Shown here in pieces: positions 7,052-9,836 of a DNA stretch of 9,836 nucleotides. A program made the position numbers and the translations under genes. The stretch lies in the IMG/VR virus record IMGVR_UViG_2563366976_000007; one strand, given 5' to 3'. Each line of letters begins with the position of its first letter. Position 1 is the first letter of the stretch. Source of the DNA: a virus. Lineage: Duplodnaviria; Heunggongvirae; Uroviricota; Caudoviricetes. The notes under the pieces were generated by a model that saw only the letters and a list, made by a program, of their open reading frames with translations, was not told the DNA's origin and did no database searches.

Positions 7052-7258
7052 ATGGCTGAAGAGAAAAAAGGCGGTGTTTCGGTGTACATAAGCCCCGAAA
7101 TCGTGGAGGTGCTCAAGCAGCGCCACAAAAAAAACTATGAAGCTGGCGTTGCGGCTGGACTGGATCCGCTGATGACGCCGGAGCCGTCGATAGGTTCACT
7201 TGTACGCTCTTATTTACTTGCGGCGCTTGGGATGCATAAAAATTATGGGGGTGAATAA
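7052..7258 (+). CDS. Hypothetical small protein (68 aa), first gene of the head operon
   Basis: ATG 7052 preceded by GAAGAGGAA; alternative in-frame ATG at 7019 has no SD. Its stop overlaps the capsid ATG (TAATG at 7256-7260), so it is translationally coupled to the major capsid gene. Confidence 0.6.
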   Translation: MAEEKKGGVSVYISPEIVEVLKQRHKKNYEAGVAAGLDPLMTPEPSIGSLVRSYLLAALGMHKNYGGE

Positions 7259-8313
7259 TGGCAGGCAAAGCAACGGCACTTAACACTAACCAGCTTTTCA
7301 TGTACCTGAATCGCGGGGATATTGCGGATTTTAAATTCAGCCCTCTGTTTACCACGCTGTTTTTCCCGAACGTGGCGACATTCAGCACGCAAAACATCAT
7401 GCTGGATACCCTGGACATTGAAGAAGTCACCATGTCGGCGTTTTGTTCGCCTATGGTGGGTAGCCAGGTTCAGCGCGATAAAGGGTACGAAACCAGCACA
7501 ATCAAACCTGGCTACATGAAGCCAAAGCACGAAATCGATCCAACGAAAACCATCATGCGCATGGCTGGAGAAGATCCGGCACAGCTTAACGACCCTACCT
7601 ATCGCCGTATGCGCCTGATTACTGGCAACATGCGCCGCCAGATAAACGCCATTAAGGCACGCGTGGAATGGCTGGCGGTGAATGCGGTAACGACCGGAAA
7701 AAACATCATTGAGGGCGAAGGCATAGAACGCTATGAAATCGACTGGAAAATACCGGAAAACTGCATCATAGAGCAGGCCAAGGGTAAAAAATGGTCCGAG
7801 CAGGATAAAGACATGCACGACCCAATCTATGACATCGAGCTTTATGCTGATCAGGCTGGTTGCCCCGCAAACGTCATGATTATGGGCGCTGAGGTATGGC
7901 GAACGTTACGCAGCTTTAAAAAATTCCGTGAGCTGTACGATCTTTCCCGTGGTTCAGAGTCCGCCGCAGAGCTGGCCTGTAAAAACCTGGGCGAAGTGGT
8001 GAGCTTTAAAGGCTATCTGGGCGATATTGCCCTTATCGTCTATTCCGGCAAATACGCCGACAGCGACGGCACAGAAAAATATTTCCTTGAGCCTGATTTG
8101 CTTGTCCTGGGCAACACCAACAATAAAGGGCTGGTGGCCTATGGTGCGATTATGGATCAGGACGCAGTAAGAACGGGGGCAACGCAAAACATGTACTACC
8201 CGAAAAACTGGATTGAGGACGGAGATCCGGCGATTGAGTACGTGCAGACGCACAGCGCACCGCAGCCGGTTCCGGCAGATATTCGCAAATTTGTTACTGT
8301 CAAAATTGCTTAA
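7258..8313 (+). CDS. Major capsid protein, lambda gpE-like
   Basis: 351 aa. Multiple blocks match lambda gpE as recalled: FKFSPLF..LFF (lambda FKFDPLFLRLFF), PGYMKPKHEIDP (PGYVKPKHEVNP), DPTYRRMRLITGNMR (DPAYRRRRIIMQNMR), VSFKGYLGDIALIVYSGKY (VSYKGMYGDVAIVVYSGQY), LVLGNT..GL.AYG.I.D, YPKNW...GDPA.EY...HSAP. Length also matches (gpE 341 aa). Confidence 0.85.
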   Translation: MAGKATALNTNQLFMYLNRGDIADFKFSPLFTTLFFPNVATFSTQNIMLDTLDIEEVTMSAFCSPMVGSQVQRDKGYETSTIKPGYMKPKHEIDPTKTIMRMAGEDPAQLNDPTYRRMRLITGNMRRQINAIKARVEWLAVNAVTTGKNIIEGEGIERYEIDWKIPENCIIEQAKGKKWSEQDKDMHDPIYDIELYADQAGCPANVMIMGAEVWRTLRSFKKFRELYDLSRGSESAAELACKNLGEVVSFKGYLGDIALIVYSGKYADSDGTEKYFLEPDLLVLGNTNNKGLVAYGAIMDQDAVRTGATQNMYYPKNWIEDGDPAIEYVQTHSAPQPVPADIRKFVTVKIA

Positions 8314-8324
8314 CGGGGGATTCT

Positions 8325-8660
8325 ATGGACACTCCATACATTGAGTTATTTGCAGGCAGTCAGCAGGTCGCCACGACGCTGGTACATTTTGCCGCTGATG
8401 CTGGCGTTATCCAGGAATTTACCCCGCTGATGCTGGCGGACAATGGCGAGTTTAAGCCGTGGGATGGTCAGGAATCTGGCAAGGCTGTTTATCTGACTTC
8501 GTACCCCGTGGACACGTCAAAGCAGAAATCAGCACAGTGTTACAAGACGGGGATATTTAATATCGCCGCCGTAAACTGGCCTGAGAGCGCCGACACTGAC
8601 GCGAAAAAATGCGCCGCCTTTGCGGGTTCTGGCGTATCCGTTCAGCCGCTGGCGCGATAA
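8325..8660 (+). CDS. Head decoration protein, lambda gpD-like
   Basis: 111 aa (lambda gpD 110 aa). Motifs TPLMLAD (gpD TPLMLD), WDG, CYKTGIF (FYKSGTF) and WPESADTDAKKCAAFAGS (WPEAASDETKKRTAFAGT). GGGGGA SD 4 nt upstream. Confidence 0.75.
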   Translation: MDTPYIELFAGSQQVATTLVHFAADAGVIQEFTPLMLADNGEFKPWDGQESGKAVYLTSYPVDTSKQKSAQCYKTGIFNIAAVNWPESADTDAKKCAAFAGSGVSVQPLAR

Positions 8661-8672
8661 GCAGGGGAAACG

Positions 8673-9086
8673 ATGGCAACGAATGAAAGCATCATGGCGC
8701 TACCGCTGGCGAGTAAATTTAAAGCAGAAGCGCGGGCAATGGCTGACAGAGGTTTATCAACCTACGAGGCCGTATATCAACTCAACAAACTGGAAGAACA
8801 GGACAAGCCGCGCGCTGATGCGATTATGGCGCTTCATGAACATAACGACTATCAGCCGCTGTTACGTGCAATGGCAAACGTGCCATGTATTAGCGTCGAT
8901 AATGCTCGTGAAATCCTGAACATGACCATAGAGCAGGAGCGCCCAAAGGTTGCACCAGAGCTTACCGCAGCCTTTGAAAACTTTATGGACATGCACAGCC
9001 CGCAAGCCGTATCAGCTGGCATGGCGTACGATGGCAGAAACCAGGGCGATGACGGCGACATCGATCGCATACTGAAAACCATCTGA
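8673..9086 (+). CDS. Hypothetical protein (137 aa) between the decoration gene and cos
   Basis: AGGGGA SD 4 nt before ATG. Acidic, probably helical protein. Function unknown; by position it could be a packaging or head-completion factor. Followed by a terminator and the cos site. Confidence 0.65.
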   Translation: MATNESIMALPLASKFKAEARAMADRGLSTYEAVYQLNKLEEQDKPRADAIMALHEHNDYQPLLRAMANVPCISVDNAREILNMTIEQERPKVAPELTAAFENFMDMHSPQAVSAGMAYDGRNQGDDGDIDRILKTI

Positions 9087-9091
9087 GACAA

Positions 9092-9116
9092 GGCCGGAGA
9101 AATCCGGCTTTTTTTT
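9092..9116 (+). terminator. Rho-independent terminator
   Basis: GCCGGA-GAAA-TCCGGC hairpin followed by T8. Third copy of the same terminator motif. Confidence 0.75.
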
Positions 9117-9148
9117 ACGGGTCCTTTCCGGCATATGGACCCGTTACG

Positions 9149-9160
9149 GGGCGGCGACCT
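9149..9160. other. lambda-type cohesive end site (cosN), GGGCGGCGACCT
   Basis: GTTACGGGGCGGCGACCTCGCGGTTTTTCGCTATTTATGA matches, with one mismatch, the lambda cos junction and left-end sequence as I recall it (…GTTACG|GGGCGGCGACCTCGCGGGTTTTCGCTATTTATGA…); identity is lost after ~35 nt. Lies ~135 nt upstream of the Nu1-like gene, as in lambda. Confidence 0.8.
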
Positions 9161-9255
9161 CGCGGTTTTTCGCTATTTATGAGCCTTTTCAGGGGGGTGG
9201 TGGTGGTTTTGTTGTTTGCTCTATCTTTATGAATAAAAAGGGAAAGATGCAAGCA

Positions 9256-9291
9256 ATACACCAACCTGAAGCAGTAATTAAGTTGGTGTAT
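9256..9291. promoter_or_regulatory. Perfect 10-bp inverted repeat abutting the terS start codon
   Basis: ATACACCAAC (9256-9265) and GTTGGTGTAT (9282-9291) with a 16-nt spacer, ending 3 nt before ATG 9294. Together with a G-rich tract (GGGGGGTGGTGGTGG, ~9192-9206) it occupies the position of cosB in lambda. Confidence 0.4.
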
Positions 9292-9293
9292 TA

Positions 9294-9836
9294 ATGAAAT
9301 CGCACCTGATGAACAAAAAAAACATGGCTAAAAGCTGCCGTGTAAGTGCGACAGCGTTCGACAAGTGGGGAGTAACTCCCGTTGAGCGTAAAGGCCGTGA
9401 GGCGTTTTATGATGTTGCCAGCGTGATAGACAATAGGGTTAACAATGCAATTAGCCAGCTTACAAACGACAAAGGCGATATTGACGATGATGAACTATTA
9501 CGAGTCAGGATCAGATTACTGACAGCGCAGGCGGAGGCGCAGGAGCTTAAAAACGAGCGCGAACGAGGCGACGTTATTGATACAGGGTTTTGCCTGTACG
9601 CGCTTTCAAAGCTGGCGAGCCAGATTTCTTCAATCATGGACAGCATCCCGCTTACTATGCAAAGGAGCTTTCCACACATTACCCCAGCCATGCTGGATGG
9701 GCTTAAAAGGGAAGTGGTTAAAGCCTGTAATGCCAGTGCCAGAGTTGCCGACAACCTCCCACAGATACTGGCTGATTACTTGAAAGAAACAACCGGAAAC
9801 GTACCGGAAAAGTTGCAGCAGAATAAAGATAAGTAA
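9294..9836 (+). CDS. Terminase small subunit, lambda Nu1-like
   Basis: 180 aa (Nu1 181 aa). Strong block similarity to lambda Nu1 as recalled: LLTAQAEAQELKNERERGDVIDTGFCLYALSKLASQISSIMDSIPLTMQRSFP (Nu1 LTRAQADAQELKNARDSAEVVETAFCTFVLSRIAGEIASILDGLPLSVQRRFP) and C-terminal LKREVVKACN...LADYLKE (LKRDIIKAMN...LSEYIEQ). The N-terminal ~50 aa are more diverged. Start could be ATG 9294, 9309 or 9324; none has a clear SD. Stop TAA is at the window end. Confidence 0.85.
   Translation: MKSHLMNKKNMAKSCRVSATAFDKWGVTPVERKGREAFYDVASVIDNRVNNAISQLTNDKGDIDDDELLRVRIRLLTAQAEAQELKNERERGDVIDTGFCLYALSKLASQISSIMDSIPLTMQRSFPHITPAMLDGLKREVVKACNASARVADNLPQILADYLKETTGNVPEKLQQNKDK

Follow-up and report, generated by a model that had tools for sequence, protein, structure and literature searches.

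The cos region of the island

The stretch of DNA analysed here, referred to throughout as the window, is the 9,836-nucleotide viral record IMGVR_UViG_2563366976_000007 from IMG/VR, which extends from the start codon of an integrase gene to the stop codon of the gene for a small terminase subunit (TerS). The element is a phage-inducible chromosomal island (PICI) of the Gram-negative type from Escherichia coli, ~11.3 kb in length, and its right-hand part carries, in order, genes for a capsid and a decoration protein of the lambda E and D types, an intrinsic terminator, a lambda-like cos region and terS (Table 1). Positions 9119-9293 probably form the cos site of this island, in which a cosN of the helper type would be combined with R sites for the island's own TerS; we place the probability of this reading, together with the mechanism proposed below, at roughly two in three.

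Window positions 9114-9193 align with the two joined ends of lambda, 48468-48502 plus 1-45, as fetched from the actual genome sequence (score 99, with two small gaps, both in the spacer between cosQ and cosN), and the core of the match consists of 39 nt (9143-9181) with one mismatch. An initial annotation, made from the letters of the window, had recognised a match to lambda cosN of about 35 nt; the match is real and longer, at about 80 nt, extending 45 bp rightward from the nick. The cosN sequence is preserved, as that annotation had proposed, but the cosQ element within the match had been missed. A window position is given by the lambda coordinate (bp) plus 9148, and the top-strand nick is thus predicted between 9148 and 9149. 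The cohesive-end sequence GGGCGGCGACCT is found once in the window, which proves little by itself as a 12-mer with up to two mismatches is not rare by chance (mean of 0.58 per shuffle); it is the alignment to lambda that is convincing. cosQ lies at a lambda-like distance from cosN, the spacer length differing by 1 nt net, and the similarity to lambda breaks off just short of lambda R3. When the window was compared by blastn with 50,697 phage records, 87 records were found, and all but one of those listed match only the segment from about 9112 to 9195; relatives with other packaging modules lose their similarity to the window at 9182-9194, near the spacer that follows cosN.

An 8-bp inverted repeat upstream of cosN (ACGGGTCC/GGACCCGT, 9117-9124 and 9137-9144) is present as initially described, but it was rejected as a separate signal: its left arm is cosQ, the other arm appears to be a chance complement, relatives do not keep the pairing, and the spacer is also found in phage PhiR5_1.

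Table 1. Features of the cos region and other genes of the window, with lambda-numbered coordinates (bp) where these apply.
Feature	Position	Strand	Remarks
Intrinsic terminator, hairpin and T-run	9090-9117	+	Terminator scan; ends an upstream open reading frame (ORF) of 137 residues and abuts cosQ
cosQ, GGGTCCT	9119-9125	+	Aligns with lambda 48473-48479; no variation among the satellite and phage cos sites compared
cosN, predicted 12-nt cohesive end GGGCGGCGACCT	9149-9160	+	Same as lambda bp 1-12
cosN-cosB spacer	9161-9193	+	Homologous to lambda bp 13-45; holds the conserved GCTATTTATGAG block
R3-type site GGTGGTGGTTTTGTT	9199-9213	+	bp 51-65; conserved core of the G-rich tract; candidate main TerS-binding site
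Integration host factor (IHF)-like site, weak, ATTCATAAAGATA	9222-9234	-	3 mismatches to WATCAANNNNTTR; position of lambda I1
R2-type site, inverted	9255-9265	-	bp 107-117; plus strand AATACACCAAC, minus strand GTTGGTGTATT; left arm of repeat
R1-type copy GTTGGTGTATT	9282-9292	+	bp 134-144; right arm of repeat; overlaps the terS ribosome-binding region
Phage_Nu1 protein (terS)	9294-9836	+	Pfam
Integrase, tyrosine	1-1239		Pfam
AlpA	1562-1858		Pfam
DUF4222 protein	3113-3412		Pfam
D5-type primase	3394-5226		Pfam
SSB	5756-6166		Pfam
Major capsid protein, lambda E-type	7258-8313		Pfam
Decoration protein, lambda D-type	8325-8660		Pfam

Layout of cosB

The sequence to the right of the lambda match had been regarded as unrelated to lambda cosB. 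This holds in so far as the lambda R sequence (CGTTTCC core) was not found downstream of cosN in the window, but the region is homologous to cosB of the N15/Monarch type, being 77% identical to that of a Monarch-type prophage aligned as far as window 9267, and it keeps a lambda-like layout which ends at the terS start codon, bp 146. Two landmarks noted initially, a G-rich tract (GGGGGGTGGTGGTGG, 9192-9206) and an inverted repeat next to terS, are indeed present, and owing to an ungapped alignment with the lambdoid prophage of E. coli CU37RT-2 they are best read as a set of R3, R2 and R1 sites in the orientation pattern of lambda. The alignment places the R core of the window, GGTGGTGGTTT, at bp 51-61. 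The R3 sites of lambda and N15 have been placed by experiment (PMC9026076, PMC4669245), at bp 50-65 in lambda and, by linker scanning, at bp 48-60 in N15 (PMC9026076), the latter segment reading GAGGTTGTTGTTT in the N15 sequence; the R3-type core of the window coincides in position with both.

The same core, GGTGGTGGT[GT]TTGTT, was found in every satellite cos site compared, from Escherichia, Kosakonia, Superficieibacter, Enterobacter and Citrobacter, and it stays while the rest of cosB diverges across these five genera. The cohesive end itself is less constant. It differs from that of lambda in some satellite cos sites (e.g., GGGCGTCAGGCG, GGGCGGAAGGCG and GGGCGGCAGACG) in which the R3 core is unchanged (IMG/VR loci L059-L138); the variation is seen in other genera. 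Between R3 and R2, the IHF-like matches of relatives are better than that of the window and lie at bp 74-86, with one mismatch in the Monarch-type prophage and in satellite L051.

The R2-type site occupies a place equivalent to lambda R2 (bp 109-124) in the same orientation, and most satellite cos sites of the various genera keep it as AATACACC[AC]AC; the Monarch-type prophage reads AATACAACAAC there. Only in the subclade of the window (the window and RM9872) is the R1-type copy perfect; it is degenerate in EcWJ and PM4-5, and absent from other genera, in which an ordinary Shine-Dalgarno sequence is found instead. Together, these two copies form the perfect inverted repeat, which is 11 nt rather than 10 and ends 2 nt before the ATG at 9294. 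We consider that both copies probably serve as R sites; the right arm, and the repeat as such, are not conserved. An N15-style remote rR2 inside terS and further R copies were sought in the window, and none was convincing.

The same 11-nt repeat might instead be an RNA hairpin masking the ribosome-binding site of terS, or a protein operator. The RNA segment does fold at -16.2 kcal/mol (z = -3.5), and the right arm, 2 nt from the ATG, contains a GGTG which could act as the Shine-Dalgarno sequence. However, the corresponding hairpins of relatives are weak or absent (-7.6, -9.3 and -6.3 kcal/mol, z from -0.9 to +0.8), and the arm that is conserved is the left one alone, which has the position and orientation of lambda R2 and resembles the R3 core. 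We therefore regard this explanation as unlikely, and hairpin and R-site roles would in any case be compatible with each other.

Two classes of R core and recognition helix

Pairs of cos and terS were collected from E. coli genomes, from a set with one genome per species, from contigs encoding close homologues and from two pattern scans of IMG/VR. The scan of the one-genome-per-species set yielded no close E. coli copy, because each species is represented by a single genome; it did contribute two satellite loci and the phage-type set used for comparison. The pairs fall into two classes. In the satellite class the R core GGTGGTGGT accompanies a TerS helix of the form MAKSC[RK]V[SG][AVI]TAFDKW, whereas in the class of N15 and Monarch-type phages the core GGTTGTTGTTT accompanies MASS[LI]GISVQAFDKW. 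The window, with GGTGGTGGTTT and RVSATAFDKW and not GGTTGTTGTTT and GISVQAFDKW, falls outside the N15/Monarch class, and the difference in R core and helix is constant in all satellite copies compared.

The IMG/VR loci follow the same division. There are 80 loci with the satellite R3, taken from a scan result of 110 stretches for which the R3 core itself was the retrieval pattern, and 78 of these encode the satellite helix SC[RK]V[SG][AVI]TAFDKW, the other two not being resolved. Among the 79 loci with GGTTGTTGTTT, the phage helix S[LI]GIS[VT]QAFDKW was present in all 58 that were readable. The classes also differ in what follows terS: a gene for the large terminase subunit (TerL) was found in none of the 26 satellite-type loci with enough downstream DNA, compared with 47 of 61 phage-type loci. 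Among the loci compared, the satellite R3/helix type appears to be confined to satellites.

The small terminase of the island

The TerS of the window has 180 residues and matches PF07471 with 81.1 bits (cut-off 30). Its homology with lambda gpNu1 is full-length (hhalign 99.85%, residues 6-166 against lambda 3-180), with the N-terminal part aligning to the DNA-binding domains of lambda and N15 and with N146, A149, P156 and Y162 of the C-terminal part invariant in lambda, N15, Monarch-type and satellite TerS. The DNA-binding domain is of the N15 type, short and without the insertions of lambda, and carries satellite-specific residues. An AlphaFold2 model built from an 11-sequence alignment shows a strand, helix, helix, strand, helix order that fits a winged helix-turn-helix, at low confidence (predicted local distance difference test score, pLDDT, 58). 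A sequence search of the PDB with TerS gave no significant relative, since only the divergent N-terminal domain of lambda has been solved, and NCBIfam had nothing for TerS or for the 137-residue and 93-residue ORFs.

The best phage match to TerS is gp1 of N15, at 46-47% identity, and none of the 50,697 phage records exceeds 47% or has a cosB matching that of the window; the TerS of the CU37RT-2 prophage, which has a gpA-type TerL next to it, is 49% identical. Recent capture of the whole terS-cosB unit from a phage was also considered and was rejected, as no phage among these records has the unit.

Among satellite TerS proteins, identity is highest in the DNA-binding domain (98% between two E. 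coli variants and ~75% across genera) and lowest in the C-terminal tail (60% and 26-34%, respectively). In Superficieibacter a satellite-type domain is joined to lambda-like central (78%) and C-terminal (65%) parts. Such a pattern, together with the variable cohesive end, would be expected if the domain and R3 constitute the satellite's own signal whilst the tail and cosN suit the TerL of the local helper.

The TerS proteins of E. coli satellites end in an extension of 12-13 residues, GNVPEKLQQNKDK (residues 168-180, window 9795-9833), that is absent from lambda, N15 and Monarch-type TerS and from satellite TerS of other genera.

Satellites embedded in prophages

Satellite-type cos sites always lie downstream of capsid E and D genes, and often inside the E or portal gene of a prophage. 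Many islands with this TerS are embedded in this manner (L049, which is EcWJ, L091, L105, L013 and L051-L057), which is the helper-embedded arrangement of Mageeney et al. (PMC10111431), and they allow a satellite cos to be compared with the cos of the prophage around it. In EcWJ, the island lies within a prophage with a near-lambda TerS and cosB, and cosQ and cosN are common to both; the same arrangement, in a prophage with lambda Nu1 and lambda cosB, is found in the IMG/VR locus L091. In a further IMG/VR locus, L105, a Monarch-type helper cos and a satellite cos with identical cohesive ends are present on one molecule. Here the two differ by T to G changes at bp 54 and 57 of R3 and by a T to G change at the matching base of R2. 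Lambda TerS contacts bp 55-63 (PMC9026076), and the two R3 positions adjoin or fall in the equivalent segment.

Two further kinds of cos arrangement were seen among these sequences. The E. coli PM4-5 locus (L008) has two cos sites in inverted orientation, at 2532 (+) and 3399 (-), one with R sequences of the phage 21 type after a capsid module and the other of the satellite type with terS, inverted relative to the window. A number of IMG/VR contigs of ~7-12 kb (L175, L180, L190, L197, L200, L208, L209, L228, L230 and others) carry a full Monarch-type cosB with three R copies, and neither a TerS helix nor TerL was detected downstream of cosB in them; they look like islands which copy the whole cos of the helper. 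The flank on the cosQ side is common to several of these contigs and the PM4-5 island.

The principal alternative is that the cos of the window is effectively a helper-type cos, with its R sites read by a Monarch/N15 TerS and the island TerS being redundant or interfering with the helper; the island would then be packaged like P4, SaPIbov5 and 11capE, which bear the cos of their helper. The close relationship of the two kinds of cosB, in which the R cores differ by only one or two bases over a region 77% identical as far as 9267, is in keeping with this, as is the embedding of one satellite in a Monarch-type prophage; the PICI-sized contigs with a complete Monarch-type cosB and no TerS indicate that such a strategy is used in this family, and N15 terminase packages lambda DNA despite its different R3 (PMC4669245). 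However, the G-for-T differences at bp 54 and 57, in or beside the segment of TerS contact in lambda, are fixed across five genera along with fixed changes in the helix, other embedded copies lie in lambda-type prophages whose R sites are entirely different, and terS is intact in hundreds of genomes. Dependence on a helper TerS is thus a minority possibility in our estimation, though one to be taken more seriously than the hairpin.

Comparison with known packaging systems

One of the closest known systems is that of EcCICFT073, which belongs to the same island family and in which Rpp, together with the helper TerS, reads the island cosB, cosQ and cosN being shared and cosB private (PMC6092414, PMC6739421). 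Both types have a lambda-type cosQ and cosN and a non-lambda cosB with the specificity gene straight after it, and helper TerL, needed by the Rpp type, would be needed by the window as well. An Rpp-bearing sibling of the window, in E. coli JNE141411 (L050, 760-1324), occupies the same cspD-clpS site and is 94% identical over 85% of the window; similarity runs to about 9189, and from about lambda bp 35 an Rpp module takes over, which encodes a 144-residue protein with its ATG at bp 102. The window TerS has no similarity to this Rpp (no BLASTP match; hhalign probability 0.07) and is not of the Rpp type. The window protein is a full-length Nu1 homologue including the C-terminal part which Rpp lacks, and for this reason should not need the helper TerS. 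The window cosB is also longer, with the ATG at bp 146 instead of bp 102, and includes copies of the R2 and R1 types.

The proposed R3-PICI site lies at bp 48-65 (Murialdo and Feiss, 2022; PMC9026076). The Rpp-type R3 reads ACCACCACCAC, its GGT repeat being reversed relative to the window, and the R3 region of the JNE141411 sibling, GACACCACCACCACT, carries on the opposite strand the 12-nt satellite core TGGTGGTGGTGT. The basic residue (K/R) and Thr by which the satellite helix can be told from that of phages are also found in Rpp when the two are aligned by eye on the Trp. These likenesses may be due to chance, or they may reflect a common satellite packaging signal. A broader and more tentative proposal, to which we give less weight than to the reading of the window itself, is that there is a packaging specificity peculiar to satellites: the DNA-binding domain and the GGTGGTGGT R3 would move as a fixed pair between islands and genera, cosN and the TerL-binding tail would be exchanged for those of local helpers, and the TerS and Rpp routes may read one common signal.

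Among phages, the closest relatives of the island TerS are those of the N15/Monarch group, in which R3 lies at the same bp. The complex Monarch-type cosB with N15-type specificity has been described by Feiss et al. (2015; PMC4669245), and its layout of R3, IHF site, inverted R2 and R1 is mirrored in the window. In the CU37RT-2 prophage GGTTGTTGT occurs three times, in the order plus, minus, plus, and a near-consensus IHF site separates the first copy from the second. The window differs from this group in its GGTGGTGGT core in place of GGTTGTTGTTT, in a helix of SC[RK]V[SG][AV]T in place of S[LI]GISVQ, in the compactness of its cosB (146 bp compared with ~228 bp) and in having no terL next to terS.

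In the staphylococcal pathogenicity islands (SaPIs) a small terminase encoded by the satellite likewise pairs with the large terminase of the helper and targets the satellite's own site (PMC6092414 and established knowledge). However, SaPIs employ headful packaging from pac and a TerS of an unrelated family, whereas the window is of the cos type, with a cutting site common to the helper. P4, SaPIbov5 and 11capE resemble the window in having a cos on a small island that uses helper capsids and terminase, but they copy the helper cosB and encode no TerS, while the window-type cosB of embedded copies is unlike the cosB of the prophage around them. No published analysis of the TerS-type PICI module or its cos was found, in a literature search whose coverage was thin for subscription journals. 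The split between cosN and cosB has already been published for PICIs of the Rpp type; the module described here differs in its complete TerS, in its descent from the N15/Monarch lineage and in its three-site cosB.

Proposed packaging mechanism

Under the reading favoured here, induction of a helper would lead to excision and replication of the island, and the island TerS would bind the satellite R sites through its N-terminal winged-helix domain, contacting R3 (bp 51-65), the inverted R2 (bp 107-117) and, as far as this subclade is concerned, R1 (bp 134-144), with a possible bend at bp 74-86. TerS would then recruit the gpA-type TerL of the helper through its Nu1-like central and C-terminal parts, and the helper TerL would nick the lambda-type cosN and package the DNA, with cosQ used for termination. 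Helper DNA with R sites of the lambda, 21 or Monarch type would be a non-preferred substrate of the island TerS, such that the island is packaged preferentially. In short, the machinery of the helper is probably steered onto satellite DNA. The initial annotation had likewise suggested that the island's own Nu1-like protein reads cosB; this fits the comparative evidence, namely the pairing of R3 with the helix, the missing terL and the differing cosB of the surrounding prophages. Binding, TerL recruitment, cleavage and discrimination against helper DNA are all predicted steps, and element-specific packaging in particular is what the class-specific differences in R site and helix would lead one to expect.

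Several points weigh against this interpretation, which draws on comparison and not on experiment. The association of R site and helix is a correlation rather than repeated covariation, since it reflects essentially one evolutionary split, and related TerS proteins can cross-recognise, as the packaging of lambda DNA by N15 terminase implies; Monarch-type helpers may do so here. The structural model of TerS is of the low confidence given above, and a scan for the IHF consensus between R3 and R2 of the window found nothing better than three mismatches. The tail of the window TerS is only 30-42% identical to those of lambda, N15 and Monarch-type TerS, and a single variant of the satellite TerS is found in prophages of the lambda type and of the Monarch type, of which the TerL N-termini differ over about the first 30 residues (an alignment read by eye). 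A scan of 8900-9450 for sigma-70 promoters found none for terS, and a terminator lies close upstream. Finally, in the one published test E. coli PICIs that "encode TerS" were not mobilised by resident prophages (PMC6092414).

This last result would also suit the view that the region is a decaying remnant of lambdoid prophage head genes with no present packaging function, as would the presence of lambda E-, D- and Nu1-like genes without other head and tail genes. Against it, the order int, alpA, primase, capsid E, D, cos, terS has been kept intact across 763 E. coli genomes as well as four other genera, the ORFs are intact, cosQ, cosN and R3 are invariant while the adjacent DNA diverges, and siblings that carry an Rpp module there have been proven to be mobile satellites (PMC6739421). 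A remnant is, accordingly, very improbable, and well behind the other alternatives.

PICIs carry virulence and defence genes among enterobacteria, and the module described here was found in 763 of 5,426 complete E. coli genomes, or about one in seven. To our knowledge, the Rpp route is the only route to preferential packaging that has been worked out for E. coli PICIs. If the packaging of the window is as we propose, a second route, in which a complete satellite TerS is matched to its own R sites and cosN is shared, would account for the ability of TerS-type islands to compete with helper phages, and would provide a natural, near-orthogonal TerS/cosB pair, one or two bases per site removed from the Monarch type, of use in dissecting recognition by lambda-type terminases and in engineering cos-based delivery vehicles. 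The reading predicts which base pairs and residues set the specificity.

Other features of the island

The best E. coli match to the window is strain 23CRST038, at 99.3% identity, in which the island lies between cspD/yljB and clpS and ends ~1.3 kb past terS, with one small ORF 3' of terS; it is bounded by imperfect att-like repeats 11,282 bp apart. No terL, portal, tail or lysis genes were found by Pfam in the window or in the downstream end and flanks of the island in 23CRST038; the lack of terL is what one would expect of a satellite. The element has the int, alpA and primase genes, the 10-20 kb size range, the absence of lysis and tail genes and the att site of its own which characterise Gram-negative PICIs, and the gene order is that of the Gram-negative PICIs of Fillol-Salom et al. 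(2018; PMC6092414). It differs from capsid-forming PICIs in having genes only for an E-like capsid protein, a D-like decoration protein and TerS, without portal, protease, head connectors, HNH or TerL. The E- and D-like capsid genes (7258-8660) occur in relatives as two sequence types, with ~95% or ~54% identity to the window. The capsid gene of a PICI is reportedly dispensable for transfer.

A terminator hairpin with its T-run, GCCGGAGAAATCCGGC, is found three times on the plus strand, at 6457-6478, 6821-6842 and 9093-9114, the 22-mer copies having 0, 1 and 0 mismatches; no shuffle produced any match. With three terminators in the late region, antitermination or read-through may be needed for expression of the late genes, including terS.

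Further to the left, the longest ORF of 1868-2587 (+), of 239 residues, has no family match and the region looks non-coding; the corresponding place in the closest annotated genome holds small minus-strand genes (YlcI/YnfO-like), and this is the least conserved part of the window among relatives. Past the point at which the window ends, repeats spaced ~310 bp apart lie between the last island ORF and attR in locus L003 (16163-16600); they belong to several families, are 80-98% identical and could be an origin or iterons.

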